This document shows positions 1,667-62,150 of a stretch of DNA of 64,000 nucleotides, one piece after another. A program made the position numbers and the translations under genes. The notes beneath the pieces are model-generated. The model did not search any database and was not told the origin of the DNA. It saw nothing but the letters and a program-made list of their open reading frames with translations. Each line of letters starts with the position of its first letter. The stretch's first letter is position 1. This DNA is from Anaerolinea sp. (lineage in GTDB: Bacteria > Chloroflexota > Anaerolineae > Promineifilales > Promineifilaceae), in NCBI GenBank assembly GCA_014879875.1, contig JACSRF010000600.1, positions 3,005-67,004 on the forward strand, in the 5' to 3' direction.

Positions 1667-1745
1667 GCGGGAATTATACCGGTTTTGCCTAAAGCACACG
1701 CCTCACGCTTCACGTTTCCCGCAATCCGCAATACAATCCCCCGCT

Positions 1746-2609
1746 ATGATTCTCATCACCGGCGCCACCGGCTTCATCGGTCGTTCCCTCACCCGCCACC
1801 TGACGGCCGCAGGGTACGAATGGCAGGCATATAACGGCCGTATCAACAACCCCCTCCACCTGCGCCAACAACTCGCCGGGGTGGATGTCGTCATCCACCT
1901 GGCAAGCTCCGAAGCGCGTGGTCGCAACCGCCTGTTGCAACACGTAGACATCGAAGGCACGGAGCGCCTCATCGAAGAGTGTCGCCGCGCCCAGGTACAG
2001 CAGATTATCATCGTCAGCCGCATTGGCGCCGATTCCTACTCATTGCAACCCCTCCTGCGCGCCAAAGGTGACATAGAACGCGCCATCCGCGGCAGCAGCG
2101 TCCCCTACACCATCATCCGCGCCGCCACCCTTTTTGGGCAGGGTGATCGCTTTTCGGAAATCATTTTGGGGCTGGCAATCTGGAGTTGGCCTTTGGTCTG
2201 GCTGCCCGGTGGGGGAACAGTCGCCATGCAGCCCTTGTGGATAGAGGACCTGGCGCGTTGTCTGGTGCAAACAGTGGGCCGCACCGACCTTCTGGGACAA
2301 ACAATTACCGTTGCTGGCGAAGAACGGCTGCGCTATCAGGACATCGCGCGCGAGATTTTAGTGGCCACCGGGCTGCGTCGTCTCCCATTCAACCTGCCAT
2401 TGGTCTTGTTACGGCCGTTCACCACCCTCCTCTTTCGCTGGTGGCATTGGCCGGCCGTCACCGCTTACTTCGCCGACCGCTTTTTTGTGCCCGAAGTCGC
2501 CGACCTGGACAGCGTGCTGCGCGTCTATGGCTTTCGGCCGGCCCACTTACGCGAAACCAGCGCCTACTTACGTCGCCCCGGCCTGCGCTGGCGACTTTTC
2601 CATCGCTAA
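1746..2609 (+). CDS. NAD(P)-dependent epimerase/dehydratase-type SDR (NmrA/NDUFA9-like)
   Basis: ORF 1665..2609. The internal start gives MILITGATGFIGRSL (GxxGxxG Rossmann motif). An atypical SDR, about 287 aa. Confidence 0.8.
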   Translation: MILITGATGFIGRSLTRHLTAAGYEWQAYNGRINNPLHLRQQLAGVDVVIHLASSEARGRNRLLQHVDIEGTERLIEECRRAQVQQIIIVSRIGADSYSLQPLLRAKGDIERAIRGSSVPYTIIRAATLFGQGDRFSEIILGLAIWSWPLVWLPGGGTVAMQPLWIEDLARCLVQTVGRTDLLGQTITVAGEERLRYQDIAREILVATGLRRLPFNLPLVLLRPFTTLLFRWWHWPAVTAYFADRFFVPEVADLDSVLRVYGFRPAHLRETSAYLRRPGLRWRLFHR

Positions 2610-2805
2610 AGACCTGACAAATGTAACTGAATAGTTACGACTAAGAAAACAATGGGGCTTCAGGATTTTGCGGGGTTGACGCCGTGAAACCCTGCGACAA
2701 GCTCAGGGCAGGCTGTGATGCGTGATGCGTGATTTTCTCTGGTCACATAAGGACTTCGGCGTGAGCTCAGTCGAACGCTCAGGGGTGATTACCCAAAAAC
2801 GAAAA

Positions 2806-2841
2806 CGGGCTGACCCAGTGGGCCAGCCCGATTGTTTTTTT
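2806..2841 (+). terminator. rho-independent terminator-like hairpin plus T-run
   Basis: CGGGCTG-N11-CAGCCCG followed by ATTGTTTTTTT. It lies about 200 nt after the SDR stop. A second perfect 10-bp hairpin (GAGAGTCAGG...CCTGACTCTC, 2842-2871) follows. Confidence 0.6.
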
Positions 2842-3062
2842 GAGAGTCAGGAACGCCGAAACCTGACTCTCGTTAAAAGGAGGAGAAGAAGAGATTTTTT
2901 AATACACCAACATTGTAGGCGTGAAATCTACGTTTCGCTGTACGGTGAGCCTACGCAAAAACTACGCAAAACCTACGCTTGTGACAAGAACAACAAACAC
3001 TCCTCCTCTTTCTTCCTTCAACTTTCTTCCTTCTTCCCGCTTCCAGCGTTACAATCAAGCCA

Positions 3063-5858
3063 ATGACACATATCAGCCGCTACCACGCCTTGGGCATCAT
3101 GGTCATGACCTTATTAATTGCCGCTGCCCTGCGCTTGCCAAATTTGACAACAGCCCCTCCTGGGCTCCATTACGACCTGGCAGCCAATGGCATACTGGCG
3201 GGCGACATCGGTTTCCGTGGTGATCGTCCCGTTTTTATTGCCAGCTATACCGGTAAAGAAGTGCTCTATTTCTACCTGGCCGGCGGGATGATGCGCTTGT
3301 TGGGCGAATCCGTCTTTGCTTTGCGCCTGACGGCCGCTTTCGTCGGCATTCTCACGGTGGCGGCAAGTTACTGGCTGGGGCGGGAGATGGGCTTGGACCG
3401 CCGCGTCGTCCTTATTGCCGTTATTTTGCTCGCCGTCAGCTTTTGGCACCTCCTGTTCAGCCGCTATGGCTTCCGCGCCATCACCCAGCCCTTGTTACAG
3501 GCGCTCACCCTGGCTGCCCTGCTGCGCGGCGTGCGCCGTGACCGATGGGCCTGGCTGGTTGCGGCCGGTACACTGCTTGGCTTAAGCGCCTACACCTACC
3601 TGGCCGTGCGCCTTTTCCCGGCGCTGCTGCTGCTGGCGACGCTGCCTTTGTTGGCGCAGCGGCGCTGGCAGCGCAGCAAGCAATTGCTGCTGGTGTTACT
3701 GCTTGGGGCGCTGGCGCTATCGCCTCTCCTGGCTTACTTTTACCAGCACCCGGAAGCGTTTTGGGTACGCATCACGCAAGTATCGCCGGATACGGCCGTT
3801 GCCCTGCCCCTCACCGACAGCCTCCTCAAATCATTAGAAATGTTCTTCCTCGTCGGCGACCCGTACATTCGCTTCAACCTGCCTGGCCGTCCTCTCTTCA
3901 ACAGCTTTTGGGGAACGTTGCTGGTTGTTGGTTGGTTGTACACACTCTGGCGCTGGTCACAGCCGGCGCAAGATTGGGAGCGCGTCACCAAACTGCTGCT
4001 CCTGCTCAATCCGTTGATCATGCTGCTGCCCACCGCCCTGGCCACCAGCGAAATCGTCCCCAGCAATTTGCGCGCCATTGGCCTGATCCCCCTCATCTTT
4101 TACCTGCCCGGCATTGGCCTGGCGGTACTGCTGCAATCGCTGGAAAATTGGCTGCGCAGCCGTATGGTGACGCTGGCGACGTTGGCGATTGGCCTGGTGG
4201 TGCTGCTGTTGGGCGGCATTACCACCGACCGGCTGTACCACCGTGTTTGGGCCAACAACCCAGAGTTATATTATGAGTCTGATGGGGATCTGGTAGACGT
4301 TGCCCGCTTCCTCGACGAATACGATACAAGCAGCAAGACCATCTACGTCGCCGCCCGCCATTACCAACATCCAACCGTGGCCTTTCTCAGCGACAAGTAT
4401 GGCGCTGTCAACTGGCTGCCGGGCAGCCAGGCGCTTGTCTTTCCTGCTGCAGGACCGTCCCTCCACATTTTCCCGCACAACAGCCCCTTGCCAGATTGGG
4501 CCGCCCCATACTTCACCACAGCGCAACGGCTAACAGAAGGCACAACGGCCGTCGGCCTGGATGCGTTTACGGCTTATGTAACGGCCGTTCCCCCCGCCTT
4601 GCGCCCTAATCATGCCGTCAATGTCAACTTCAGTCACGCCATCACCCTTTTAGGTTACAACGTAAACGTCGCCTACACCGGCGACGCCATGCCCATAACC
4701 CTGTTCTGGCGCGTACAAAACACCCCCCAGGCTGACTACGTGCCTTTTGTCCATCTGGAAGATTTGTGGCAGCATCGCTGGAGCCAGGTGGAGGCCAACG
4801 CTTACCCGGCCGCGCAGTGGCAGCCGGGCGATACCATCATCCAACGAATAGACCTGCCCATCCCGCCCGGCGCGCCCCCCGGTTCCTATCGGCTGCGCAT
4901 TGGCCTGTTTGACCCGACGACGGGAAACCCGCTGGCGCAACTGGATGAAGACGGCCGTTACGCGGGCAGCGCCTTCATCCTCGATCACGTCGGCGTGTTG
5001 GCCGGACCAATCCCCGACGATTTGCCGCGGCCCCCGTTCGCCATCAGCCAGCAAATCATCCCTGGCCTGCGCCTGTTGGGGTACCAACGCGGCGGCGATA
5101 CCGTTTTCACCGGCGATACGTTGGGGCTGGCGCTGTGGTGGGAAGCGACACAACCGCTGCCCAACCTGATCACACGCCTGGAACTGCTGCGCGCCGACAA
5201 CACCGGCCGCATTTTGCTCGACACCCAACCCGTTCATGACGGCTACCCGTTCCGCTACTGGTACACACCCCAATTCCTCATTGACCACGTTGACCCGCGC
5301 ATCCCCGCCGATTTTCCCGCCGGCAATTACCGGCTGCAACTACGTATGCTGGATGAGAAAAACGAAACGCTGCTCAAACAGGGACTTGGCTGGGTGGAGA
5401 TCATCGCCACGGAGCGGCTGTTCACGCCGCCGCCCACGCAGTTTAAGTTAGATATTAACTTTGGCAATGAAATCAGCCTGCGCGGTTATGACGTGGATGT
5501 TTACGGTGATAATCAGTTTACGCTGCGCCTGGTGTGGCAAAGCGCGCAAACGGCCGCCGCCGACTACACCGTCTTTGTCCATGTGCTGGGGCTGGACGGG
5601 ACATGCTGTATCTGGCAGCAAGATACCATGCCACAGCAAAACCAGTACCCCACCACACGCTGGCTGCCAGGCGAGGTCGTCGTGGATACCTACCAGATCG
5701 CTTTGCCCGCTGGCCTGGCGACGGGCAAATATCCGTTGGAGATAGGGTTGTATATGGCGGAGACAGGGCAGCGGTTACAGGTCAGCACAACAATGCCGGG
5801 TACGGCCGTCATCACACCCGATGCGGTTTATTTACGGCCGTTGCTCATTGAGGAGTGA
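3063..5858 (+). CDS. GT39/ArnT-PMT-like membrane glycosyltransferase with large extracytoplasmic C-terminal repeat region
   Basis: 931-aa ORF. The N-terminal ~450 aa are polytopic and hydrophobic with ArnT/PMT-like loops. The C-terminal half contains three ~110-aa related modules (…LLGY…(L/F)WW/FWR…PAGxYxLxIGL…). Confidence 0.8.
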   Translation: MTHISRYHALGIMVMTLLIAAALRLPNLTTAPPGLHYDLAANGILAGDIGFRGDRPVFIASYTGKEVLYFYLAGGMMRLLGESVFALRLTAAFVGILTVAASYWLGREMGLDRRVVLIAVILLAVSFWHLLFSRYGFRAITQPLLQALTLAALLRGVRRDRWAWLVAAGTLLGLSAYTYLAVRLFPALLLLATLPLLAQRRWQRSKQLLLVLLLGALALSPLLAYFYQHPEAFWVRITQVSPDTAVALPLTDSLLKSLEMFFLVGDPYIRFNLPGRPLFNSFWGTLLVVGWLYTLWRWSQPAQDWERVTKLLLLLNPLIMLLPTALATSEIVPSNLRAIGLIPLIFYLPGIGLAVLLQSLENWLRSRMVTLATLAIGLVVLLLGGITTDRLYHRVWANNPELYYESDGDLVDVARFLDEYDTSSKTIYVAARHYQHPTVAFLSDKYGAVNWLPGSQALVFPAAGPSLHIFPHNSPLPDWAAPYFTTAQRLTEGTTAVGLDAFTAYVTAVPPALRPNHAVNVNFSHAITLLGYNVNVAYTGDAMPITLFWRVQNTPQADYVPFVHLEDLWQHRWSQVEANAYPAAQWQPGDTIIQRIDLPIPPGAPPGSYRLRIGLFDPTTGNPLAQLDEDGRYAGSAFILDHVGVLAGPIPDDLPRPPFAISQQIIPGLRLLGYQRGGDTVFTGDTLGLALWWEATQPLPNLITRLELLRADNTGRILLDTQPVHDGYPFRYWYTPQFLIDHVDPRIPADFPAGNYRLQLRMLDEKNETLLKQGLGWVEIIATERLFTPPPTQFKLDINFGNEISLRGYDVDVYGDNQFTLRLVWQSAQTAAADYTVFVHVLGLDGTCCIWQQDTMPQQNQYPTTRWLPGEVVVDTYQIALPAGLATGKYPLEIGLYMAETGQRLQVSTTMPGTAVITPDAVYLRPLLIEE

Positions 5859-7195: not shown

Positions 7196-7198
7196 CAT

Positions 7199-7265
7199 CG
7201 GTAATCCGTAATCGGTAATCCGTAATCCGTAATCGGTAATCCGTAATCGGTAATCCGTAATCCGT
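7199..7265. repeat. heptanucleotide tandem repeat (CGGTAAT/CCGTAAT) x 9.5
   Basis: Units read directly: G C G C C G C G C C(partial), where G=CGGTAAT and C=CCGTAAT. This amounts to a 35-bp higher-order unit repeated about 1.9 times. It starts 4 nt after the ACAD stop. Confidence 0.95.
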
Positions 7266-7387
7266 TGGACGCTAACTTTGGAGAATGCCAGCAGATAACG
7301 GTATATGGACTTCGGGTTACAGACAGTAGGTATATTGCGTAACAGGGTTGCGCAATATGTAATACGCAATCCGTAGGAGGTTAATAC

Positions 7388-11248: not shown

Positions 11249-11267
11249 GAGTAGCAAAGCCGTTGGT

Positions 11268-11313
11268 TAGTTTGTTTGATGGTTGGTTTGCCAACCAACC
11301 ATCAAACAAACTA
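11268..11313 (+). repeat. 21-bp perfect inverted repeat (hairpin) downstream of the hypothetical gene
   Basis: TAGTTTGTTTGATGGTTGGTT-TGCC-AACCAACCATCAAACAAACTA. It shares the TTGGTTAG/CTAACCAA core with a hairpin at 59717-59755. Confidence 0.85.
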
Positions 11314-12291: not shown

Positions 12292-12377
12292 CATGGGGCA
12301 GTTCATTCACAATCCGCGCATTCCCGTTATAATGTGAGGAGATGACATGCGCGGTACGCACCACCATGAATGAAAGC

Positions 12378-12410: not shown

Positions 12411-12523
12411 CAGGACAGACCACCGGAGTTGCAAAACCTCGGAGGTGCGCGCCCCGCACAGCGCCGAACTGATTACCGAACACCGAACACCGATTACTGA
12501 ATTACCATCATGGAGGCTGATCT

Positions 12524-13465
12524 CTGAAACAACTAGAAGGACTTGTCATTAAGGCGCAAAGCGGCTTTTTTACCGTGCGCACAGCGGAAGGGGATTTTAT
12601 CGCCACCATTCCGGGGCGCTTGAAGAAGGAGCGGCTGGAAACGGACATTGTGGCCGCCGGGGATCGGGTGACCATCTCTATTCAAGATCGTGATACGAAT
12701 TTGATTGAAGCGGTGACCGAGCGCAAGTCGGTGTTGTCGCGGGTACGGCCGTCGGCAGGCGCGCGCAATCTCTCATCTGACCGGGAACAGGTATTGGTCG
12801 CCAACCCCGACCAACTGGTTTTTGTATTTTCAGTGAAAAACCCAACCCCCAATTTGCGCAAATTAGACCGCTTTTTGGTGGTGGCGGAATTAAACACGCT
12901 GCCGGCCGTCATTTGCGTGAACAAAGTTGACCTGGGCGGGGTAGAGCATGCGCAGCAGCAGTTCCAACTTTATGCAGACATTGGCTATGAGGTGATCTAC
13001 ACCAGCGTTAAGGCAAATATTGGCCTGGATGCGCTGCGCGACTGTTTACGCGGCAAGCTGTCTGTGTTGACCGGGTCGTCGGGCGTGGGCAAATCGAGCT
13101 TGCTGAATGCGTTGCAGCCGGGGCTGGGCTTGCAGGTGCGCGAAGTGAGCGGGACGACCGGCAAAGGGCTGCACACGACGCGCCATACGGAATTATTTCC
13201 GCTGGACGTTGGCGGCTACGTGGCGGATACGCCAGGGATTCGCGGGTTGGCATTGTTCGACGTGGAGCCGACGGAATTGGATGGGTATTTTCGAGAAATC
13301 GCGCCGCTGGTGGCTTCCTGCCAATTTAACGACTGCACCCACACGCATGAACCGAAGTGTGCGGTGGTTGCCGGGGTGAAAAACGGCCGTATCCACCCCG
13401 ACCGGTACCAAAGTTATTTGCGTTTACGCGAAGAACATGAAAAACTAGATGAAGCGCTTTATTAG
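12524..13465 (+). CDS. rsgA: ribosome small-subunit-dependent GTPase A
   Basis: The ORF track starts at GTG 12575. However, the conserved OB-fold N-terminus (LEGLVIKAQSGFFTV) is encoded upstream, in frame. The only candidate start there is CTG 12524, 7 nt after GGAGG. G motifs are NKVDL and GSSGVGKSSLLNAL, with the Zn knuckle C..C.H..EP.C. Confidence 0.85.
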   Translation: MKQLEGLVIKAQSGFFTVRTAEGDFIATIPGRLKKERLETDIVAAGDRVTISIQDRDTNLIEAVTERKSVLSRVRPSAGARNLSSDREQVLVANPDQLVFVFSVKNPTPNLRKLDRFLVVAELNTLPAVICVNKVDLGGVEHAQQQFQLYADIGYEVIYTSVKANIGLDALRDCLRGKLSVLTGSSGVGKSSLLNALQPGLGLQVREVSGTTGKGLHTTRHTELFPLDVGGYVADTPGIRGLALFDVEPTELDGYFREIAPLVASCQFNDCTHTHEPKCAVVAGVKNGRIHPDRYQSYLRLREEHEKLDEALY

Positions 13466-13512
13466 GGCGTCGGGCGTCGGTTCACCGATTACTGATTGCC
13501 GGCGTCGGGAAG

Positions 13513-15555: not shown

Positions 15556-15655
15556 TCCCTGCCGGTGGTCGGTAGTCGGTGATCCGAATACCGATTACGA
15601 ATGCCTTGTCTGGGTAGGATAGCGAGAACGGCCACAGCAGACAATCAAACTATAG

Positions 15656-17907: not shown

Positions 17908-17923
17908 TTCTTAAATCCGTTGT

Positions 17924-17990
17924 CGGTAATCGGTAATCGGTTCACGGCTTACGGTTCACGGCTTACGGCTTACCGATTACGATTCACGTT
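17924..17990. repeat. heptamer-periodic repeat array filling the tgt/rsmF divergent spacer
   Basis: CGGTAAT CGGTAAT CGGTTCA CGGCTTA CGGTTCA CGGCTTA CGGCTTA CCGATTA CGATTCA CGTT, ending directly at the rsmF ATG (17991). Confidence 0.9.
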
Positions 17991-19370: not shown

Positions 19371-19526
19371 GCGTCGGTCAGTTTACGGCTTACGGTTTAC
19401 GGCGTTGCCTCTTTATGCTATAGACCTTCAGATAATGTTTTGGTGTCCGAAGTCGAGGCTTTAGCCGAGAGTGAATCAAAATATTTTTCTGAACATCTAT
19501 AAATTCTTGCTGTGGAGGCGTCATCT

Positions 19527-28959: not shown

Positions 28960-29628
28960 ATGCGGAAATTGATTCGTCTGGGCGCTAAATTGATCATGTT
29001 CTTAATAGCCGATGTAACCGCAATCGGCACAGAAAACCTGCCGGCCAATGGCAGCTTCATCGCTGCGTCCAACCACCTGGGGCGCGTAGACGCCATCCTT
29101 ACCCTGACGCTCATTGACCGCAGTGACCTCATTTTAATGATCGCTGAAAAATATCGAAAATCCGCCTTTTGGCGTTTCGTTGTCAAACACCTGGACGCCA
29201 TCTGGCTCAACCGGTTTGAGGCTGATTTTCATGCTCTGCGCATCGTTGTCAAACGGCTGCGGCAAGGGCAGTTTCTGGTCATTGCGCCTGAGGGTACACG
29301 CAGCCAACAAGAAACATTGATGCTTGCTAAACATGGCACAGCCTTTCTGGCTGCCAAAACCGGCGCCCCCATTATCCCCATTGCCCTTTATGGCACAGAA
29401 GATCGCGTTATTAAGCAAAATCTGCGCCGTTTCAAACGCAGTAAAATTGTCGTGCAAGCAGGGGCCCCCTTCACTTTGCCTCCGCTTGATCACAAAAATC
29501 GCGATCAATACCTGCAAGCACAAACCGACGAAATCATGTGTCGTATTGCCGCCATGCTGCCCCCCTCTTATCATGGTGTTTATGCCGACCATCCACGGCT
29601 GCGCGAGCTAACGGAATGTGAAGCGTGA
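28960..29628 (+). CDS. plsC: 1-acyl-sn-glycerol-3-phosphate acyltransferase
   Basis: 222 aa. NHLGRVD (HX4D) and APEGTRS motifs. Confidence 0.85.
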   Translation: MRKLIRLGAKLIMFLIADVTAIGTENLPANGSFIAASNHLGRVDAILTLTLIDRSDLILMIAEKYRKSAFWRFVVKHLDAIWLNRFEADFHALRIVVKRLRQGQFLVIAPEGTRSQQETLMLAKHGTAFLAAKTGAPIIPIALYGTEDRVIKQNLRRFKRSKIVVQAGAPFTLPPLDHKNRDQYLQAQTDEIMCRIAAMLPPSYHGVYADHPRLRELTECEA

Positions 29629-29668
29629 AGTTTGTCTATTGACGTTTCACGCTTCACGTTTCACGGTT
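29618..29668. terminator. hairpin built from heptamer repeats between convergent plsC and the FAD oxidase gene
   Basis: GTGAAGCGTGAA (29618-29629, overlapping the plsC stop) pairs with TTCACGCTTCAC (29646-29657), followed by GTTTCACGGTTTTT. Confidence 0.65.
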
Positions 29669-29674
29669 TTTCCT

Positions 29675-31054
29675 CTACGCAAAAATTTTTCCCGGATTCA
29701 AAATACCATTGGGGTCAAGCGTTTGCTTGATCTGACGCATCACGTCTAATGCCGCGCCATGCTCGTAGGGCATTAGCGGCGCTTTGCCAATGCCTACGCC
29801 ATGCTCGCCGGTTGCCGTTCCTCCCAGGTCTACTGCCTTGCAGATAACGGCCGCATTGACAGCCTTGACGCGCCGGTGCGCATCCTCATCCTGGTACGCC
29901 AACGTGAAGTGCATGTTGCCATCCCCCGCATGACCGATGAGAAAACCAGATACGTCCTGCGCCTGCATTTCCTGTTCGGCATAGGCCACCAACGCCGGGT
30001 AGGCGCTGATAGGCACAGCCACATCCATCGGCATCCACGAAATACCAGGATTCAAGCGCAATTTGGTCTCATAAGTCTGGTGACGGGCGTGCCAGATGCG
30101 CTGGCGCTCGGTGGGATCGGCCGTTGCATAGACACGTGTCGCGCCCATCTCATCACATATTTCACGCACCATGTCCAGTCCTAATTGAATGGTTTCGGCA
30201 TGAGTGGCGTGAAACTCCATCAACAGCGTGGGTTGGGCGGGTAGATCCACGCCGTTTTCTTGGGCAAGCATGGCGGCCGTAGAAGCGTCAATAAAATCGA
30301 GCGCCGCCAGGTCCAGGCCGGTTCCCTTGATGGCAACAACTGCGGCCACGGCCGTTTCCACATCAGCAAACGACGCCGCCACCGCACTCATCAGGGCCGG
30401 AATTGGCGTCAGCTTCAACGTCGCTTGCGTAATCACCCCCAACGTGCCCTCACTGCCCACAAACAGATGCAGTAAATCGTACCCCGACGACTGCTTGATG
30501 GAGCGCGAACCCACGTGAATGAGACGGCCGTCGGCCAGCGCCACCTCCATCCGCAGCACATTATCTTTCGACGCCCCATACTTCACCGTGCGAATGCCGG
30601 CCGCATTATTCGCCAACATCCCGCCAATCGTCGCATTCGCCCCGGGGTCTGGCGGAAAAAAGAGGCCATACACCGCCAACTTTTTGTTCAAATCCTTGTA
30701 ACCAATGCCCGGTTGCACCGTCACCTGAAAATCATCAACATGAACCGCTACAATCGCCTGCATCCGCCCGGTTGAGAGCACAATGCCGCCATACAGCGGG
30801 ATCGGGTTGCCTTCCAACGACGACCCTACACCCCACGGCGTTACTGGAATGCGCTGCTCATTTGCCAGGCGCAGCACGCCAGCCACCTGCGCCGCCGTTG
30901 TCGGCCACACGACCACCTCGCCCAAATGGGGCGGGTGGCTCGACATGTCGGCGGCGTGCAGATTCAGTTCAGATACGGCCGTACTGACCCCATCCGTCCC
31001 CACAATTGCCTGCAATTGTTGCAAAACGTCATCTGTAACCAGGTTATACGACAT
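29675..31054 (-). CDS. FAD-linked oxidase (GlcD/D-lactate dehydrogenase family)
   Basis: 459 aa. An N-terminal PCMH-type FAD-binding domain ([13 protein letters not shown]) and a C-terminal GEHGVGIGK. Confidence 0.88.
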
Positions 31055-37930: not shown

Positions 37931-38878
37931 TCAGGCAAATGGCTCTTTGAAATCATAGAGGCCATTATCCACCTGCCACTGTCGGGCACAAACTGAATTT
38001 GGACAAAGAAGACGGCCGTTAACGGCGCTGCCCAGCGGTGACTGACAGAGGGGACAGGCAAAGAAGGTGTTGGCGACGGCCGATGCGTCTGGAACGGCCG
38101 TTACGTCTGGAACGGCCGTCTCCCCTATCGCCGGATGCGCGCTAACCACAAACACGCTTGGACTTAACTGCCCGATACGTCCTGTATGCTGCATCATCCC
38201 ATCTAAAGTGACCAACAGCCGCGTTGGCAACAAACGCTTGAGTGGGGCAAAGCGAAAATAGGAGACCGCCAGCGTTCGTCCTGGGGAAAAACGTGCGGCA
38301 TGTAATTGCTGCCGAATCCATCGTGGGTGAAAGTCAAAATTGAGCGCGACAAATTCAACGGGTGACAAAGTGAATGGCGACCATGACTGGCGACGCAGCC
38401 AGTAACGGCCAATAGCCTTTACATTCTGCTTGTTGGCAAACTCCAACACATAACGGCCACCAGGTCGCGCAATCCGCGCAAGTTGAGCAAACAAAGCAGG
38501 CGCATCAGCCGCATGATGCAGCGTGCGCACCTGTACCATTGTGTCAAACAACCCTGGGATAAATGGCATTTGATACCAATTACCGGCTACAAACAGAAAA
38601 CGAGGATCATGCCCCCAAACCGCTTGCGCTTCGCGCAGCAGCGAACGTGAATAATCAAACAAAACAACCGTTTCATAACCCAGGTATTCATCGGCCAGAC
38701 GGCCGAATCCGGCGCCAATCTCAATGAGTGTTCGCCCGGTTGGTGGCAGCAGGCGGCGCAGCGCAACCCGTTCAACCTGGTCTTCATACCCACGTCCCTG
38801 GCCCTCCCAGAACCGTGTGCGGTAATCTGAACCCTCATAATCACAGACCGGCGGTTTATCAGCCATAGCAGAACTCAC
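37931..38878 (-). CDS. class I SAM-dependent methyltransferase with C-terminal Trm112-like zinc ribbon
   Basis: 315 aa. LIEIGAGFGRL motif I. The C-terminus is CPLCQSPL...LLCPNSVCARQWQVDNGLYDF. Confidence 0.8.
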   Translation of the reverse strand: MSSAMADKPPVCDYEGSDYRTRFWEGQGRGYEDQVERVALRRLLPPTGRTLIEIGAGFGRLADEYLGYETVVLFDYSRSLLREAQAVWGHDPRFLFVAGNWYQMPFIPGLFDTMVQVRTLHHAADAPALFAQLARIARPGGRYVLEFANKQNVKAIGRYWLRRQSWSPFTLSPVEFVALNFDFHPRWIRQQLHAARFSPGRTLAVSYFRFAPLKRLLPTRLLVTLDGMMQHTGRIGQLSPSVFVVSAHPAIGETAVPDVTAVPDASAVANTFFACPLCQSPLGSAVNGRLLCPNSVCARQWQVDNGLYDFKEPFA

Positions 38879-41440: not shown

Positions 41441-41510
41441 CGCTTGAATCCTTCCTCTCCGTTATGCGCTATGAAGCGTAAAAGGTGACCAATGGCAGGC
41501 GCTTCGCGCT

Positions 41511-42098
41511 TCACGTTTCACGCTTCCCACTCCCACCTGACCAACGTTGAAACAAATCTTCCGACAATTCGATGTCGAGCAAATCGAGCACACGATTAAC
41601 CGTCTGGTTAATGATGTCATCAATCGTTTGCGGGCGATGATAAAAAGCAGGCACAGGGGGCACAAGCACGGCCCCCATCTCCACAACCTGGGTCATCATG
41701 CGCAAATGTCCCAAATGTAATGGGGTTTCTCGTGGCACAAGGATTAAACGGCGGCGATCTTTCAAGACAACATCGGCCGCTCGCAGCAGCAAATTGTCGC
41801 TGAACGAATAGGTTATTCCTGCCAATGTCTTCATAGAACAAGGCATGACGACCATACCCATCGTTTTGTATGAACCAGAAGAAACAGCCGCGGCAATGTC
41901 TTTGATACGATAACTAACGTCAGCCAATGCCTGCACCTGCTCTACCGTGTAATCAGTTTCCAGGCCAATTGTTATGCCTGCCGCATTGCTCATAACCAGG
42001 TGTGTTTGCACATCGGCCACCTGTTGCAGCACTTCAAGCAAACGAATACCATAAATGACGCCACTGGCGCCCGAAATTCCTACAATTAATCGTTGCAT
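41511..42098 (-). CDS. ubiX: flavin prenyltransferase UbiX
   Basis: MQRLIVGISGASGVIYGIRLLE..., with VMPCSMKTLAGI. Start chosen at ATG 42098. Confidence 0.9.
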   Translation of the reverse strand: MQRLIVGISGASGVIYGIRLLEVLQQVADVQTHLVMSNAAGITIGLETDYTVEQVQALADVSYRIKDIAAAVSSGSYKTMGMVVMPCSMKTLAGITYSFSDNLLLRAADVVLKDRRRLILVPRETPLHLGHLRMMTQVVEMGAVLVPPVPAFYHRPQTIDDIINQTVNRVLDLLDIELSEDLFQRWSGGSGKRET

Positions 42099-42358
42099 AA
42101 TCATCCAGTCGTGAACGCAATTACGCCACATGCTCCAGGTAAGGTATAATGCCAGTAGCAGAAGTAATCAGAAGTCAGTACGCGGTAGACAGCCACAGGG
42201 AACGCCCACTGATAACTGAATACTGATTACCGATTACTGAACACCGGTACCAGGGAAAAAACATGGTCATCTCAATGACGCATCATCCCTGCTAACGCAT
42301 TGTAAAGAAGGACGAAAGAAAGACCAAGCTTTCTTAACACCAAATTCAAGAGGATCCT

Positions 42359-45540: not shown

Positions 45541-46695
45541 ATGGACGGCCGCACCAGACAGTTAGTACAGGCATTGCACGATCACCCGGCGCAGATCGTA
45601 TTTGTCGCTGCCGGCGCCGGCACGCAAGCCCTCTCCGACATATTGGGCGTATCTGGGGCGTCACGCACCTTACTCGAAGCCGTCGTGCCCTACAGCGCGG
45701 CAGCCCTCGACGAATTTCTCGGCCAAACGCCGGCGCAATACGTAGCTGCAGAAACCGCAAGGCTGTTGGCCGGGCGCGCCTTCACCCGCGCCCGCTGGCT
45801 GCGTCCCAACAACGATCCGGTCATCGGGTTGGCTTGCACCGCCACCATCATCACCGACCGTCCCAAACGAGGCGAACATCGCGCCCACGTCGCCATCTGG
45901 CATACGCGCAAACTAACGGAATATGGACTCTATCTGCACAAAGGGTTACGCAGCCGCAGCGAAGAAGAAGAGATGGTCAGCCACCTGTTGCTCAATGCTC
46001 TGGCTGAAGCGTGCGCGCTGCCACACCGCTTACCTTTACCCCTGCAACCAGGCGACCGATTGGAAACAGTCACCCATGACTTTGCCCAGGTGGCGCAACA
46101 ATTAACAGATGGAGCCATCCCCTTCTTCGGGTTACAGGCACACGGCCTCATCTGCGTGGCCGACGCGCGGCCGCAACTGATACTGTCCGGCGCATTCAAC
46201 CCACTGCACGATGGACACCTGGCGATGGCAAACGCTGCCAGCCAGGTTTTGGGCAAACCGGTTGCCTTTGAAATCGCAGCCGTCAACGCGGATAAACCCT
46301 CACTGGAGGTAAACACCCTGCTCGACCGCCTGGCGCAGTTTGCCGGCCGTTACGCCGTCTACGCCAGCAATGCCCCAACCTTTGTCGAAAAAACGCGCAT
46401 TTATCCGGGAGCCAACTTCATTGTTGGCTATGATACGGTGCAGCGCATTCTACAGCCCCGCTATTACGGAAATAGCGAACAACAGATGTGCGCCGCTCTC
46501 CATGAAATTCGCGCGCAAAGCTGCCGTTTCCTCGTGGCCGGCCGTCGCGCGCCCGACGGTCAATTTTATGAACTCACCGACCTCTTCATCCCCTCAAACT
46601 GCGATGATTTGTTCCAGCCCATTCCTGCCAACCTATTCCGCATGGACATCTCCTCCACCCGCCTCCGCGCCACCCACGCCAGGAGCAGTCGGTAA
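45541..46695 (+). CDS. two-domain protein: CinA/PncC-like N-terminal half plus HxGH cytidylyltransferase-like nucleotidyltransferase
   Basis: MDGRTRQLVQALHDHPAQIVFVAAGAGTQALSDILGVSGASRTLLEAVVPYS (CinA-C-like). The C-terminal half has LILSGAFNPLHDGHLAMA (HxGH) and ISSTRLR (ISSTxxR). Confidence 0.7.
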   Translation: MDGRTRQLVQALHDHPAQIVFVAAGAGTQALSDILGVSGASRTLLEAVVPYSAAALDEFLGQTPAQYVAAETARLLAGRAFTRARWLRPNNDPVIGLACTATIITDRPKRGEHRAHVAIWHTRKLTEYGLYLHKGLRSRSEEEEMVSHLLLNALAEACALPHRLPLPLQPGDRLETVTHDFAQVAQQLTDGAIPFFGLQAHGLICVADARPQLILSGAFNPLHDGHLAMANAASQVLGKPVAFEIAAVNADKPSLEVNTLLDRLAQFAGRYAVYASNAPTFVEKTRIYPGANFIVGYDTVQRILQPRYYGNSEQQMCAALHEIRAQSCRFLVAGRRAPDGQFYELTDLFIPSNCDDLFQPIPANLFRMDISSTRLRATHARSSR

Positions 46696-46707
46696 ACCGT
46701 GAAGGGA

Positions 46708-47424
46708 TTACGGATTACGAATTACAATTTGAGTCGGTTGTGACAGCTTGACGATGCTCTGCCCAGGGTAAACCCCTTTGCGCAGGCTGAGATTGGCATA
46801 GACGAGGGTGTGTGGCCCCACAATACAGCCAGGATTAAGCACCGCATTGCAGCCGGTTTGCACGTAGTCGCCCAAAATCGCGCCCAGCTTTGCCAGCCCC
46901 GTATCACAAGCCACGCCATCAATGGTCAAGATGATGGACGGCCGTTTCCCCGTCACCTCATCCTTCGCACTCAACATCCCTAAATTACTCAGCTTCGTCC
47001 CTGCGCCCAAATTCACATGCTGCCCCAGCACACTATCCCCCACATAATTAAAGTGCGGCGCGGCCGCGCGCGGCAAAAACAAACTATTCTTCGCCTCGCT
47101 GGCATGTCCCAAAATGCTCCCCGCCAGCAAAATCACATCCTCACGCACAAACGCCCCATGCCGCACCACCGCTCCCGGCCCAATATATGCCGGTCCTTGC
47201 ACGTAAGCGCCCGGCTCAATCCGCGCTCCGACGCCAATATAAATTGGGCGGTCGCCTAGATAAGCGCCCGGCATCACCTCACCTAAAATCGTCTGCCCAT
47301 CCCCGACTAAGCGCGCTACCTGCTGCTTAATGCGCGCCACCACATCCCACACATACTCACACCCCGCAAACAACTCCGCCACCAGCGGATCCGTCAAATC
47401 AAAAAAATCTCCTGGTTGCAACAT
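46708..47424 (-). CDS. left-handed beta-helix (hexapeptide-repeat) transferase-like protein
   Basis: Hexapeptide periodicity throughout (…IGVGARIEPGAYVQGPAYIGPGAVVRHGAFVRE…). Start ambiguous: 47424 ATG or 47445 GTG. Confidence 0.65.
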   Translation of the reverse strand: MLQPGDFFDLTDPLVAELFAGCEYVWDVVARIKQQVARLVGDGQTILGEVMPGAYLGDRPIYIGVGARIEPGAYVQGPAYIGPGAVVRHGAFVREDVILLAGSILGHASEAKNSLFLPRAAAPHFNYVGDSVLGQHVNLGAGTKLSNLGMLSAKDEVTGKRPSIILTIDGVACDTGLAKLGAILGDYVQTGCNAVLNPGCIVGPHTLVYANLSLRKGVYPGQSIVKLSQPTQIVIRNP

Positions 47425-47669
47425 ACCGTCACCCTTTACACTCAATAATAAACCGTAATTGGTTCGCCCGTTGCTAAGGAACGAGAATTAAACAACTTGA
47501 ACATTTAACCGGCTAAAGCCTCGACTCCAAGGGATAAGTCATTTAAGCGCCATTCCTAATCACCGATTACCGACCACTGATTACTGATTACTGACGCCCG
47601 ATTGTATGCAAAGAAAGAGCGATAGCAAGTTGTATGAGATACAATCACACTGTTACAATGTGAACGACT

Positions 47670-54592: not shown

Positions 54593-54597
54593 GTTTG

Positions 54598-57143: not shown

Positions 57144-57781
57144 ACGTCTTCCTTGAAGATAGCGAGGATTAAAAGATGATGGGATTAAGAAAAATCCCCC
57201 AATCCCTTAATCCCCGCATGTCGTTTATCTATGAAGCGAGAGCAATTTGCTCGCCCAGTAGCGAGCAAGTTTACCAAACGCCCCGGCAATTGGCGACACA
57301 ACGACCGCCCCTTTCAACCGACGCCCGGATTTGCAGTAGGGTGGCAGGAATTCCAATTATGCCTTGTTCACTGGGAATGAATTCCCAGGCTGAGGCAAAA
57401 AACGTGCTGAAGCACGTTAGGGCGACACCCCCCAACCCGTTTTAACGGGTTTTGTGTCTCAGACGCCGGTTTCAACCGTGTCAATAGCGCACAAGTTCCA
57501 TCATTAGAATTGCTGGTAGGGTGATCGTCGGTTTACGATTTCACGTTTTTTTTGTACAATCTCGCCCTAAATAGCTCGTTATCATTGTGCAAGTTATCCA
57601 ATAAATTGAAGGACATGACACCTGATAGGCTTGACGCATGACACATGTCACATGACATGCGCCACAGAATGCGGCACACTGTATGAGCAAGCAGTCTTCT
57701 GGGCGAACATGTCTGTGATCACCCACAATGACAGCAAGCAATCACTTAAAAAATCACACTAATTTTGGAGAGAAACTTCCC

Positions 57782-59032
57782 ATGGCTGAAAATTTGAATC
57801 CTTTTGCAATTGCGCAGGCGCAGCTCGATGAAGCTGCTGAAGTATTAGGACTAGACCCCGACATGCACGCCTTTCTACGGCGGCCCCAGCGGGAATTCCA
57901 CTTCTCGATTCCCGTGAAGATGGATGATGGCACAACAAAAACGTTTCAGGGCTTCCGCGTGCAGTACAATGACGCGCGCGGCCCGGCCAAAGGTGGCATT
58001 CGCTTCCACCCCGATGAGACCATAGATACGGTGCGTGCGTTGGCGGCGTGGATGACCTGGAAAACGGCCGTTGCCGACATCCCCCTCGGTGGCGGCAAAG
58101 GCGGCGTCATTTGCAACCCACGTGAACTATCTACCGGCGAACTAGAACGGCTCAGCCGTGGCTACATGCGCAACATCGCCCGTTACGTCGGCCTCTTCCA
58201 GGACTCGCCCGCCCCCGACGTCAACACCAACCCCCAAATCATGGCCTGGATGCTGGATGAATATGAAACCATCATGGGGCATCGGGAACCGGGAACCATC
58301 ACCGGCAAACCATTAGCTTTAGGTGGTTCCGCCGGCCGGGGTCCGGCGACGGCCATGGGCGGCATGTACACCATCCGCGAAGCAGCCAAAGTATTAGGGA
58401 TTGAGTTGAAAGGAGCGACGGCGGCCATCCAGGGCTTTGGCAACGTCGGCTCTTTTGCCGCCAAGCTGGCGCAAGAAATGTTTGGCATCAAGGTCATTGC
58501 CCTCAGCGATGAATTCGGCGGCATCTACAATGCCAATGGGTTCGATTACCACGAAGTGGCGGCGCACATGGCGAAAACGGGCAAGGTCATTGACTTCCCC
58601 GGCAGCGTCCCCATCTCCAACAAAGATTTGCTAGAATTAGGCGTGGATATCCTGATTCCGGCAGCCATTGAGAACCAATTGACCTCGGCCAATGCGGAAA
58701 ATATCAAAGCGAAGATCATTGCCGAATTGGCCAACGGCCCCACAACGCCAGACGCCGACAACGTCTTTGAGCGCAAGGGCATTTATGTCATCCCCGACTT
58801 CCTGTGCAACGCGGGCGGCGTCACCGTCTCTTACTTTGAAATGGTGCAAAATGCCTACCAGTATTACTGGACAGAAGAGATGGTCAATCAACGCCTGGAC
58901 GAGAAGATGACCCATGCGTTCCACGCCGTCCACAACATGGCGCAGCAGAAAAAGGTGTACACCCGTGTGGCCGCTTACCTGGTTTCGGTGAGCCGGGTAG
59001 CCGAAGCGGTGCGTCTGCGCGGTTGGGTATAA
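57782..59032 (+). CDS. gdhA: NAD(P)-specific glutamate dehydrogenase
   Basis: MAENLNPF... start after GGAGAG. GGGKGG catalytic-Lys region, GFGNVG dinucleotide motif. Confidence 0.92.
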   Translation: MAENLNPFAIAQAQLDEAAEVLGLDPDMHAFLRRPQREFHFSIPVKMDDGTTKTFQGFRVQYNDARGPAKGGIRFHPDETIDTVRALAAWMTWKTAVADIPLGGGKGGVICNPRELSTGELERLSRGYMRNIARYVGLFQDSPAPDVNTNPQIMAWMLDEYETIMGHREPGTITGKPLALGGSAGRGPATAMGGMYTIREAAKVLGIELKGATAAIQGFGNVGSFAAKLAQEMFGIKVIALSDEFGGIYNANGFDYHEVAAHMAKTGKVIDFPGSVPISNKDLLELGVDILIPAAIENQLTSANAENIKAKIIAELANGPTTPDADNVFERKGIYVIPDFLCNAGGVTVSYFEMVQNAYQYYWTEEMVNQRLDEKMTHAFHAVHNMAQQKKVYTRVAAYLVSVSRVAEAVRLRGWV

Positions 59033-59700: not shown

Positions 59701-59925
59701 TCTAAGTCAAAGTCATTGGTTGGTTAGTGGGTTCGTTTACCTGCTAACCAACCAACACTTCCCTGTTCGTAACCGTTCACTCCCCGCCAGTTGAGCGTTC
59801 GACTTAGCTCACGCCGAAGCCTTGTCAAAACCGGCGGGGAGTGAATGATTACGTCTCCTCTAACAACCCCCGACCTTCAACAAGTGCGACTTTCTCTTGC
59901 GACGTTTTTGCGACGATAGCTTGCT

Positions 59926-60180
59926 ATGATGCGGCGCATGGTAAGCGATACCGGCAAGTTACGGCAGCCAACTCATTACCAGGCTTACCTGGTTCGTTTG
60001 TGGCGGGAGAATGAGACTGCGCCCTGGCGGGTGATGGTAACGGATGTACCGACGGGGGCGCAGCGCCATTTCGCCAGCCTGGATGCCTGTTTTGTGTTTA
60101 TACAAAGAGATCTGGACACGGCCGTTATCGCCAAAGAAACAGATCGGGAATTCAAGGACGGGAAGAACCCAACCACATAA
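59926..60180 (+). CDS. small hypothetical protein (YLVRLWRE...WR...TG...FASL type)
   Basis: 84-aa ORF. The pattern HYQAYLVRLWRENETAPWRVMVTDVPTGAQRHFASLDACFVFI is one I recall as a recurrent small-protein family in Chloroflexota, cyanobacteria and actinobacteria. Confidence 0.5.
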   Translation: MMRRMVSDTGKLRQPTHYQAYLVRLWRENETAPWRVMVTDVPTGAQRHFASLDACFVFIQRDLDTAVIAKETDREFKDGKNPTT

Positions 60181-60190
60181 GGAGCGTGTT

Positions 60191-62077
60191 ATGAAACAAA
60201 TAGGAATCGTATTTACTTTACTCACCATTGTCGGGTTTGCGGCCCTGGGGTTGGTCTGGCCCAGTCAGGCCGCGCCCACGCAAAACATCATCATTGTCAC
60301 CATCACCGACGACGCCGAATGGCCGGATGGCTTTTGTTCGCTGCGCGAGGCGCTGCACAACGCCAATAACAACATGCAGATATTCAACGGTGAAGGAGAA
60401 TGCGCCGCCGGTTCCGCCAGCGAGACCGATGTCATTCGGCTTACCAGCGGCGAGACCTATTCCCTGACCCTGCCCGGCAATGGGGATGACGAAGGGGATT
60501 TGGATATTCTAAACAATAGTCTGCCGCTTGACCTGCGCATTGACGCGGATGGGGCCGTCGCGGCCACCATCAACATGACCATCGCCGGCCAACGGGTGAT
60601 GGAGATTCATGGCGCAGTAGTGGAAATAGACAACGTGACCATAAGCGGCGGCGTTCACCCCGATGCTGGCGGCGGCATCCTGAACAATGGCGGCGCACTG
60701 ACCCTGACGAACGTGAGCCTGCAAAACAACAGCGCCAATTCGGGGGGCGGCCTTTACAATGACAACGGTACGGTTCTGGTCGGCGATAACACGCAGATCG
60801 TCCTCAACACAGGCGCATTGGGCGGCGGTGGCATCTTCAACAGTGGCGTGCTGACCGTTAGCAACAGCATGGTTCGGGCCAATAACAGTTCCGGTGGGTC
60901 TGGCGGCGGCATTTACAATGGTGGCGGGACGCTGGTTGTGCAAGAAAACAGCGCCGTTAATTTGAACACGGCCGCTTTCGATGGCGGCGGTATCTACCTG
61001 ACCAACGACACCGTTTCGGCCCACATTCAGCACAGCATGGTGGATGGCAACCAGGCCGACAACGATGGCGGCGGCATCTATTTTGCATCATTGTCTTACG
61101 AGAAGCTGCTGCTGGAACACAGCCAGATCAACGGCAATACGGCCGGGCAAAATGGCGGCGGCGCCTGGGTCGCCGCCCAGATAAACCACACACAAATTAA
61201 TGACAACAGCGCGGCTAACATTGGCGGTGGACTGTACACCTCTGGCAGCTTTTTCTTGCATGACGTCGCCGTGCGCGGGAACACGGCCGTTTCTGGCGGC
61301 GGTTTGGGCGGTGGTCAGGTTTATGCGACACAGCTTATTGTGGCCGAAAATGAAGCCGATCAGCGCGGTGGTGGTTTATACGTCTCATATGTAGAACTGC
61401 AAGATAGCCAGGTTATCAGCAACACGGCCGGAACCGATGGTGGCGGCCTCTATTCAGACAACAACATATTCGTCAATAATGCCGCCCGTCTGGAACGCGT
61501 ACTGGTAGCCCACAACAACGCGACCAATGGCGGCGGCGTCTGGGCGGGCCGGCGCATGACTCTGGGCAATGTCACCATCAGCAGCAACGGCGCCCAGGCC
61601 GATGGCGGCGGCCTGTACATTGACGCCAGCGGTATCGTCACCGCTACCAACGTCACCCTGGCCATCAACATGCCCGGCGTAGATTTGTACAAAGAGGGCG
61701 AGATGACGCTGCAAAACAGCATTATCAGCAATCTAGACCAGCCTAACTGCGCGCTGATTGCCACGCCCATTAACTCCCTCGGCAACAACCTCTCTGATGA
61801 TAATTCTTGCCAGGGGCTGGACGAGCCAACGGACATCGTTGATCCAGACACGCTGCTTGGTCCACTGGCGAATAACGGCAGTAACACGCCAACCCACGCC
61901 CTGCTGGATGGCAGCCCAGCCATTGACAGTGGCGATGACGCTGCCTGCGCCGAGCCATTGGTCAATGGCGTGGATCAGCGCGGTCTGCCCCGTCCTTATG
62001 GCGACGCCTGCGACATAGGCGCACATGAGGAGCAGCCCCCCTACCGTCTCTATTTGCCGGTTGTGATACGGCCGTAA
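60191..62077 (+). CDS. secreted parallel beta-helix repeat protein (choice-of-anchor-Q-like / PMP-repeat-like)
   Basis: MKQIGIVFTLLTIVGFAALGLVWPSQA signal peptide after AAGGAG. DGFCSLREALHNANNN motif. Many GGG(I/L)Y(N/S) beta-helix turns. The C-terminus is ...GAHEEQPPYRLYLPVVIRP. Confidence 0.85.
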   Translation: MKQIGIVFTLLTIVGFAALGLVWPSQAAPTQNIIIVTITDDAEWPDGFCSLREALHNANNNMQIFNGEGECAAGSASETDVIRLTSGETYSLTLPGNGDDEGDLDILNNSLPLDLRIDADGAVAATINMTIAGQRVMEIHGAVVEIDNVTISGGVHPDAGGGILNNGGALTLTNVSLQNNSANSGGGLYNDNGTVLVGDNTQIVLNTGALGGGGIFNSGVLTVSNSMVRANNSSGGSGGGIYNGGGTLVVQENSAVNLNTAAFDGGGIYLTNDTVSAHIQHSMVDGNQADNDGGGIYFASLSYEKLLLEHSQINGNTAGQNGGGAWVAAQINHTQINDNSAANIGGGLYTSGSFFLHDVAVRGNTAVSGGGLGGGQVYATQLIVAENEADQRGGGLYVSYVELQDSQVISNTAGTDGGGLYSDNNIFVNNAARLERVLVAHNNATNGGGVWAGRRMTLGNVTISSNGAQADGGGLYIDASGIVTATNVTLAINMPGVDLYKEGEMTLQNSIISNLDQPNCALIATPINSLGNNLSDDNSCQGLDEPTDIVDPDTLLGPLANNGSNTPTHALLDGSPAIDSGDDAACAEPLVNGVDQRGLPRPYGDACDIGAHEEQPPYRLYLPVVIRP

Positions 62078-62150
62078 TCGGTAAACCGTAAACCGTGAAC
62101 CGTGAACCGTGAACCGTATTCCATAAACGGAACACGGTTTACGGTTCACG
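62072..62150. repeat. heptamer-periodic inverted array filling a convergent intergenic spacer
   Basis: CCGTAAT CGGTAAA CCGTAAA CCGTGAA x3 CCGTATT CCATAAA CGGAACA CGGTTTA CGGTTCA. The left and right halves are in opposite orientation, giving an imperfect long hairpin. Confidence 0.9.

Follow-up and report, generated by a model that had tools for sequence, protein, structure and literature searches.

What are the 7-bp tandem repeats that recur between the genes of a 64,000-nucleotide stretch of an Anaerolinea sp. genome (contig JACSRF010000600.1, positions 3,005 to 67,004; the whole stretch is called the window here), and do they serve the genes beside them? An original prediction had likened them to the STRR heptamer repeats of cyanobacteria and had placed them in a non-cyanobacterial genome. 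The latter was correct: the RsgA encoded in the window is 85% identical to that of an Ardenticatenaceae metagenome-assembled genome (MAG) and the best 80 genome matches were all Chloroflexota, by which the genome is a Chloroflexota of the Ardenticatenaceae/Promineifilaceae type. On balance, we take the repeats to be heptanucleotide simple sequence repeat arrays of the same kind as the STRR and TAACTGA repeats, one degenerate family, (TYACNGW)n, that would have arisen by slippage and would act as 3' hairpins and leaders.

Heptamer arrays in spacers and genes

Period-7 repeats were found at all 15 loci that had been listed, by the tandem-repeat program TRF and by direct reading of the sequence. 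TRF returned 18 period-7 rows for the window, every one at or adjoining these loci, and 9 rows for periods 4, 5, 8, 10, 11 and 13 pooled. A crude gene map of 49 open reading frames (ORFs) left 5.3 kb (5348 bases) of spacer DNA, in which base identity at lag 7 was 0.304 versus a mean of 0.255 in 1000 dinucleotide-preserving shuffles per spacer (z = 8.1; the observed spacer value was attained in 0/1000 shuffles), so that the periodicity of the window spacers stands clear of a shuffled background. Harmonics were raised at lag 14 (z = 5.4), lag 21 (z = 4.8) and lag 28 (z = 2.1), and none of the remaining lags in the spacer autocorrelation was above z = 2.0. When the three largest arrays were masked, the lag-7 peak was still 0.285 versus ~0.26. 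Coding DNA had period 3 alone and no lag-7 peak.

The density of arrays was 1.69/kb in non-coding DNA versus 0.085/kb in coding DNA (~20-fold). After correction of three over-extended gene starts, 10 of 14 arrays were non-coding and 3 lay either at the edge of an ORF or in an ORF of doubtful standing; the sole array truly within a gene was a weak block at 58273–58297. The arrays are almost confined to non-coding DNA. Their extent had been overstated: nearly every spacer was said to hold heptamer runs and the spacers to be built from them, but a period-7 block (≥14/21 matches at lag 7; spacers of ≥25 nt) occurred in 13 of 36 spacers, plus a 12-nt spacer at 46696, and arrays account for 11.5% of spacer bases (615/5348). 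The best of five control lags gave a block in only 2 spacers. Spacers that lack arrays contain ordinary hairpins, an 8-nt-period array or the GGTTGGTT...AACCAACC hairpin family. Exclusion from coding DNA is expected for non-triplet repeats, and would equally be seen if the arrays were purely neutral slippage debris, functionless and with accidental hairpins, a reading that we consider rather unlikely on the evidence of hairpins and orthologous sites given below.

Twenty blocks could be phased into 76 units, 32 of them distinct, with the consensus T-Y-A-C-N-G-W (TYACNGW; successive counts out of 76 were T 60, Y 72, A 70, C 75, G/C/T 43/21/11, G 54 and A/T 42/25). Phase and strand were picked to maximise the AC core, which brings some circularity, although 70 and 75 of 76 far exceed the effect of that choice. 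The commonest units were TTACCGA (12) and TTACGGA (6), followed by TTACTGA, TCACGTT and TCACGGT (5 each); CGGTAAT, CCGTGAA, CTGATTA, CACGCTT and ACGGCTT are rotations or reverse complements within the same family. The heptamers had been called related, and the 76 units do form one degenerate family, with ~16 loci in 64 kb; the block at 57629–57660 (CATGACA/CATGTCA) stands outside it.

Hairpins and orientation at gene ends

It had also been stated that opposed blocks often form hairpins. This was strongly so at two loci: the pair at 29617–29668 (folded as 29610–29685) gave −31.0 kcal/mol (z = −5.8) and the pair at 62070–62152 (folded as 62060–62165) gave −48.5 kcal/mol (z = −6.1), with 0/200 shuffles folding as well in either case. 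At three to four others it was modestly so (pairs at 17905, 15550, 13460 and 46680; z = −1.5 to −2.2), and direct (single) arrays were unstructured (z about −1.1 to +1.0). Array hairpins in relatives had z = −4.6 to −8.1, and the non-repeat hairpins of other convergent spacers z = −6.5 to −8.9. Six of the 10 convergent spacers were strongly structured, three of these six being built of tandem units. The two arms of a hairpin were unequal (7 vs 3 units, 2 vs 4 units), as expected if each arm slips on its own. All five inverted pairs of the window had the order WCNGTRA...TYACNGW. This constant reverse-then-forward order argues against neutral debris, as do the location of the inverted pairs, exactly where ordinary hairpins stand at convergent gene ends, and their stability, which equals that of those hairpins.

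A stable G+C-containing 3' stem-loop of the kind expected of an intrinsic terminator was found at the pairs 29617–29668 and 62070–62152 only; direct arrays have none. A T-run follows the hairpin at 29617–29668, on the + strand only, and none follows that at 62070–62152; the non-repeat hairpins of this genome are likewise mostly without a U-tract. The suggestion that the repeats act as terminators is supported, for the inverted pairs only, by where they lie and how they fold. No Rfam family matched anywhere in the window.

Orientation differed between the two ends of genes (Fisher p = 0.007, read by eye in the window). All six blocks that lay no more than 20 nt from a start codon were forward, 0–20 nt ahead of the start or the Shine-Dalgarno sequence, and 8 of the 10 that lay equally close to a stop codon were reverse. 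Five genes have their stop codon inside a repeat unit, and a simple explanation of the reverse bias is that only the orientation carrying TAA/TGA is tolerated against a gene end. A near-consensus promoter, TTCACA-16-TATAAT, was detected by promoter scan at 12306–12333 upstream of the rsgA array (12466–12506), and this match places the array in the 5' untranslated region (UTR).

Arrays as embedded promoters (−35 TTCACG with −10 TACGAT or TACAAT, giving leaderless mRNAs) were rejected, because the scan gave one match and the arrangement was not kept in the sister species. A common promoter-proximal motif, CGCAATCCG, was also rejected, as it was not enriched (26 matches versus 29.6 expected).

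rsgA itself apparently starts at CTG (12527), 9 nt after GGAGG (region 12513–12529); an in-frame TGA lies just upstream, and the clade as a whole conserves the CTG together with the Shine-Dalgarno sequence and the codons that follow.

Orthologous arrays and the proposed slippage account

The same spacer keeps its array across at least sister species, and the differences between species consist of unit number and swaps of unit type. A sister-species MAG (L002) is collinear with the window over ~19 kb, with genes 75–81% identical. Past the acyl-CoA dehydrogenase stop it has ~4 units versus 10 in the window, and the alignment opens gaps of 28 and 7 nt. The family also recurs in its tgt/rsmF divergent spacer and kinase leader, in copies that are shorter and more degenerate. 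These shorter arrays and the 28- and 7-nt gaps fit replication slippage. L002 lacks the array at 19373, and its rsgA leader likewise has no array (window 12466–12506). A 97%-identical strain from a separate assembly (L083) has in its rsgA-leader array a 1-nt deletion and one ACACCGA unit converted into TTACCGA, a unit type already in use. In the spacer between the acyl-CoA dehydrogenase gene and etfB (acdh-etfB), three more distant relatives (L003, L005 and L015) have instead a repeat hairpin that belongs to the GGTTGGTT/AACCAACC type, so that this spacer carries a repeat element in five species while the family differs. Persistence at orthologous positions and the recurrent use of the acdh-etfB spacer speak against functionless debris; in its favour are the rapid turnover between species, some spacers being without the array or different at 85% RsgA identity, and the diversity of units across the clade.

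This diversity was seen in 32 RsgA neighbourhoods from the closest relatives (MAGs of the Ardenticatenaceae/Promineifilaceae type), which were compared with 48 neighbourhoods from Anaerolineales. Spacers of the close relatives had a lag-7 identity of 0.277 versus ~0.256, with lags 14 and 21 also raised, whereas those of the Anaerolineales had 0.254. Non-coding arrays in the close group numbered 35 at period 7, 15 at period 14 and 14 at period 8, with ≤5 at others; the Anaerolineales had 8 period-7 arrays, mostly in two loci. Units vary among genomes (GATTGAC, CAATCTC, GGGGATC, TCACTGT and others), and some genomes, e.g. L027 and L033, have several unrelated units within 20 kb. AC-N-G units recur in several: L012 has the window's own units, L023 ACTGGGG/ACTGTTC-type units and L046 exact TAACTGA arrays. 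Period 7, and to a lesser extent period 8, is a trait of this Chloroflexota clade, with the unit sequence free.

That the arrays are assembly artefacts or remnants of MITE-like mobile elements is hardly credible, and the artefact part is already refuted. Four short-read Logan contigs end inside the longest array (7197–7266), as expected for a repeat that exceeds the assembler's k-mer, and short-read breakage of this kind is what such a reading could draw on. Against it, an independent Logan contig from another run is base-for-base identical over two arrays, L083 has both arrays with point changes and L002 has arrays at the orthologous positions. Neither terminal inverted repeats nor target duplications nor a transposase gene were seen in the window spacers and the scanned ORFs (the domain scan covered 40 of the 49), and no RAYT-type transposase domain occurred among the latter.

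A role as contingency (phase-variation) loci, in which copy-number change would switch neighbouring genes, had been put forward and is unsupported; we regard it as very improbable. Tandem repeats do occur in or near promoter regions, the 83-nt divergent spacer at 17908–17990 being almost all array, and copy number differs between species. The genes of the window, however, encode ordinary housekeeping functions of a chromosome (acyl-CoA dehydrogenase, etfBA, rsgA, tgt, rsmF, lon-like protease, coaE, gdh, glycosyltransferases and others); the neighbours of the arrays are mostly of this kind (rsgA, tgt, rsmF, etfBA, gdh), not surface, virulence or restriction genes. In addition, many arrays follow stop codons, and no copy-number variation was seen between near-identical strains.

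We propose that the arrays would grow and shrink by replication slippage and, since 7 is not divisible by 3, would be tolerated in non-coding DNA alone. Their function is suggested from the sequence: they would be transcribed as parts of UTRs. Head-to-head pairs (WCNGTRA...TYACNGW) would form a long stem-loop in the place of the ordinary hairpins at convergent gene ends, which would probably terminate transcription or stabilise RNA and would still pair after a slip of one unit. Single forward arrays may provide an unstructured leader directly before ribosome-binding sites or start codons, and reverse arrays abutting gene ends may supply the stop codon (TAA/TGA).

Several points weigh against this proposal. 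Slippage from random seeds fails to explain why ~16 loci share one family with a near-invariant AC core, and a seeding, spreading or selection step is missing from the account. We infer slippage only from the between-species comparison; near-identical strains had no copy-number change (L082 is identical, and L083 has an equal unit count at two short arrays, the longest array being unresolvable in short-read contigs), and a tgt look-up for strain-level copy number gave no match. The hairpins mostly lack a U-tract. The orientation rule comes from few, partly non-independent blocks, inverted pairs being counted twice, and a crude automated tally over 81 loci of relatives gave forward to reverse 16:11 at 5' ends and reverse to forward 13:16 at 3' ends, which is not significant; this tally is confounded by its crude gene calls and by ACGG-type units, in which either strand matches the core.

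Because slippage alone does not account for the dominance of one family, there is room for a sequence-specific factor. In line with the protein-binding role that had been suggested, the arrays might be recognition sites for a trans-acting DNA- or RNA-binding factor that reads TYACNGW at 7-nt spacing on leaders, where it would control translation or transcription, and on 3' ends, slippage supplying the raw material. This we hold to be unlikely. It would fit the single family with invariant A3-C4 at ~16 loci, the six of six forward blocks near starts, the retention of the same family at orthologous L002 sites and the resemblance of the units to TAACTGA (TTACTGA five times and TAACTGA once in the window, exact arrays in L046), which also lies forward of starts in Beggiatoaceae. 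Ring proteins such as HutP, which read NAG triplets at 7-nt spacing, offer a precedent for RNA recognition with this period. Against such a factor, no candidate protein was found among the scanned ORFs, all ordinary housekeeping, nearly any base is allowed at three of the seven positions of the unit, and related genomes have unrelated units, sometimes several in 20 kb. Array sequence was moreover less conserved between window and L002 than the adjoining promoter and UTR DNA, and the orientation bias was not reproduced in relatives.

Related repeat systems, palindromes and neighbouring features

STRRs were described in 1990, and the function and spread of intergenic heptamer repeats have been in question since. 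In filamentous cyanobacteria they are 7-bp intergenic repeats that can fold into hairpins, with a possible role in transcript stability or translational coupling, as between hupS and hupL, where a hairpin-forming STRR lies (PMC2670836). The window arrays resemble them in having tandem 7-nt units at many mostly intergenic loci, several related units and possible hairpins, and in sharing their genome with an octameric palindrome that is hyper-abundant, which is HIP1 in cyanobacteria and ACGGCCGT in the window. They differ in the host, a Chloroflexota and not a heterocystous cyanobacterium, and in the palindrome core, CGGCCG and not GCGATCGC. The STRR1–3 units (Mazel et al. 1990) are reportedly CCCCAGT, TTGGTCA and CAACAGT; 0 of the 32 distinct window units is a rotation or complement of these, and the reverse complements of STRR1 and STRR3 would have only the AC-N-G core in common with TYACNGW.

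Heptamer arrays outside cyanobacteria had been called unexpected, which is too strong, since specific families have been published from Xanthomonas, Beggiatoaceae, Bacteroidetes, Burkholderia and cyanobacteria (PMC4679880, PMC4692102). As two later papers summarise Mrazek, Guo and Shah 2007, heptanucleotides are the most abundant long simple repeats in many prokaryotes, non-triplet units are kept out of genes and polymerase slippage is proposed; Chloroflexota is not among the repeat-rich taxa named in these summaries (PMC4679880, PMC4692102). The TAACTGA repeats of MacGregor 2015 (PMC4679880) occur in Beggiatoaceae, 15 cyanobacteria and 5 Bacteroidetes as intergenic arrays of 2–10 copies; in 'Maribeggiatoa' they are mostly forward and just upstream of start codons, and related heptamers are rarely repeated. 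Cyanothece strains differ at them by indels of 7-nt steps, they interrupt assemblies, and S1, Csp or CsrA-like proteins were proposed as binders. Like them, the window arrays are intergenic and of few copies and break assemblies; forward blocks near starts were 6/6 in the window and 16:11 in the relatives' tally. TTACTGA and TTACCGA are 1–2 substitutions away from TAACTGA, and one exact unit lies at 42213. In contrast, TAACTGA makes up just 1 of 76 window units in a degenerate, mixed family, many arrays here are at 3' ends or in inverted hairpin pairs whereas only one indirect repeat was reported among the published TAACTGA arrays, and no alternate RNA polymerase beta-prime gene lies near the window arrays.

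GGGAATC of Xanthomonas and GGGGAYT of Nostoc (Rehm et al. 2015) are kept in the same spacers of related species with extensive length and sequence variation, and inverted pairs occur between convergent genes (PMC4692102). Same-spacer retention, length variation and inverted convergent pairs are found here too, and one relative (L019) has a GGGGATC/AGGGATC array; the window units, however, are not G-rich and cannot form G-quadruplexes. REP/BIME elements are likewise intergenic, often just past stop codons, hairpin-forming and present in many copies per genome, but REPs are single imperfect palindromes of ~20–40 nt linked to RAYT transposases, whereas the window elements are tandem heptamers and mostly non-palindromic.

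We found no report of such heptamer repeats in Chloroflexota. The statistics are solid for the arrays as real elements, of a kind already known from elsewhere. What they add is a Chloroflexota clade with constant period 7 and changing unit, orthologous arrays in sister species, and clear cases of inverted arrays that replace ordinary terminator hairpins; together these offer a comparative system for separating mutational mechanism from selection in heptamer repeats. The arrays break short-read assemblies and cause errors in calling the starts and ends of genes, a practical concern when MAGs of these wastewater and sediment Chloroflexota are annotated. A bolder idea, which we think improbable, is that TYACNGW, TAACTGA and STRR would share an AC-N-G core and a gene-end orientation, both owed to an undiscovered trans-acting reader of 7-nt periodicity, e.g. 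a ring-shaped RNA- or DNA-binding factor, often alongside octameric palindromes. Such a reader would occur in several lineages, most of them filamentous (Cyanobacteria, Beggiatoaceae, some Bacteroidetes and Ardenticatenales-type Chloroflexota), and the arrays would then not be products of slippage but a code that regulates genes or organises the chromosome throughout the genome.

The HIP-like palindrome claimed alongside the arrays is real: the 64 kb contain 96 copies of ACGGCCGT, most of them in the form AACGGCCGTT, e.g. at 38076–38119, against 13 copies of the next most frequent palindrome. It is the top octamer in many relatives, and 8-bp palindromes with the CGGCCG core are hyper-abundant in the window and in L002–L005, L008, L009, L011, L013, L015, L016, L018, L021–L023, L027 and L029, with the alternatives CCGGCCGG in L021 (55 times), TCGGCCGA in L022 (35 times) and GCGGCCGC in L023 (28 times). 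These palindromes are a HIP-like system with a variable flanking base. The Anaerolineales loci had no hyper-abundant palindrome, and the cyanobacterial HIP1, GCGATCGC, was absent. A link between heptamers and ACGGCCGT through the common ACGG was rejected: the heptamers are unrelated in relatives that share the palindrome, and array-bearing relatives can be palindrome-free.

Table 1. Repeat arrays and related blocks of the window (positions are those of the window; z, folding against shuffles; SD, Shine-Dalgarno sequence)
Position	Strand	Feature	Evidence	Context
1695..1740	+	Forward array ACACGCC TCACGCT TCACGTT TCCCGCA ATCCGCA ATACAAT	TRF, reading, phasing	Divergent spacer, glycosyltransferase (-)/NAD-epimerase (ATG 1747); ends 6 nt before ATG; weak promoter-like match TTCACG-17-TACAAT inside (1709-1737); degenerate orthologous copy in L002
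2713..2735	-	Short array TCACGCA x2.7 (GTGATGC on +)	TRF, phasing	Within ~150 nt missing from L002
7197..7266	-	Longest array, ~10 units, TTACGGA/TTACCGA alternating (+ strand CGGTAAT/CCGTAAT)	TRF, 9.9 copies, 88% matches	Begins 1 nt past acyl-CoA dehydrogenase stop, 121 nt before etfB; unstructured, z -0.1
12466..12506	+	Forward array GAACTGA TTACCGA ACACCGA ACACCGA TTACTGA, 5 units	Phasing	rsgA 5' UTR; ends ~6 nt before GGAGG SD; unstructured, z +0.5
13466..13512	+	GGCGTCG x2, TCACCGA TTACTGA, then GCCGGCGTCGGGAAG	TRF, reading, phasing	Entire 47-nt rsgA-lipoprotein spacer; modest hairpin, z -1.8; array in L083, none in L002
14555..14690	.	Inverted 8-nt-unit arrays (ACAAAGAT)n, loop, (CTTTGTTT)n, plus 16-nt repeat	TRF; -42.2 kcal/mol, z -6.7	Hairpin between convergent genes, architecture as in heptamer inverted pairs
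15561..15603	.	Inverted pair: reverse block CGGTGGT CGGTAGT CGGTGAT, then forward ATACCGA TTACGAA	14/21 lag-7 matches; z -1.9	7 nt upstream of Ser/Thr kinase start (-); shorter orthologous copy in L002
17921..17990	.	Inverted pair: reverse TCGGTAA x2.7, then forward TCACGGC TTACGGT TCACGGC TTACGGC TTACCGA TTACGAT TCACGTT	TRF, phasing; z -2.2	Fills 83-nt divergent spacer (17908-17990), tgt (-)/rsmF (+); abuts ATG 17991
19373..19405	+	Forward array TTACGGC TTACGGT TTACGGC	TRF, phasing	10 nt past rsmF stop; unstructured, z +0.45
29617..29668	.	Inverted pair GTGAAGC GTGAAGT, loop, TCACGCT TCACGTT TCACGGT	Reading, phasing, folding	~20-bp hairpin between convergent genes; TGA stop of upstream gene within first unit
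41497..41528	+	AGGCGCT TCGCGCT TCACGTT TCACGCT	TRF, reading, phasing	Overlaps stop codon of flavoprotein gene (-), hence in reverse as seen from that gene; fold not significant, z -0.3
42206..42250	+	Forward array CCACTGA TAACTGA ATACTGA TTACCGA TTACTGA ACACCGG	TRF, phasing; z -1.1	Divergent spacer
46688..46727	.	Inverted pair across 12-nt convergent spacer	TRF, reading, phasing	Stops of both genes (TAA 46693-46695, TTA 46708-46710) within repeat units; weak hairpin, z -1.5
47556..47603	+	Forward array TCACCGA TTACCGA CCACTGA TTACTGA TTACTGA CGCCCGA	TRF, phasing; z -1.15	67 nt upstream of adenylate-cyclase/TPR gene
57535..57556	+	Short family remnant (CGGTT)TACGAT TTCACGT, then T-run	Reading, phasing	No fold
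57629..57660	.	Palindromic period-7 block CATGACA CATGTCA CATGACA, non-TYACNGW	TRF (TGACACA x3.7), reading	~70 nt upstream of gdh (glutamate dehydrogenase); may be an operator
62070..62152	.	Inverted pair: 7-unit reverse arm (CCGTAAT ... CCGTGAA x3), 3-unit forward arm (ACACGGT TTACGGT TCACGAT)	TRF, phasing, folding	Long hairpin between convergent genes; TAA stop of upstream gene within first unit

The second, dispersed hairpin family, of short repeats GGTTGGTT(AG) ... (CT)AACCAACC, is present in the window at 11263–11310 and 59716–59756, and in the acdh-etfB spacer of relatives at L003:7940–8020, L005:5850–5925 and L015:5395–5470. TTCATCC repeats downstream of rsgA were rejected as spacer arrays, because they lie inside the signal-peptide coding region of the next gene. 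These heptamers (ATGAGATTCATCCTTCATCC...) occur in the lipoprotein gene after rsgA in L003, L004, L005, L015, L016 and L086, and are a rare intragenic case of period 7, conserved across species.

A region at 2800–2995 (− strand) is ~95–100% identical to L002, with flanking genes only 75–77% identical. It contains a CUCCUCC stretch, two hairpins, a terminator with T-run (2830–2806) and three 11-nt CTACGCAAAAA repeats; no Rfam family scored above threshold in it. We consider it a candidate conserved small RNA of ~200 nt, and the overlapping ORF 2722..3066 is probably not a gene. Finally, the C-terminal extension of the CoaE-domain protein (26815–26921) is encoded by a 15/30-nt coding repeat, ACGCCCGTCGCCACG, in 3.4 copies with 100% matches, which is probably a low-complexity linker.

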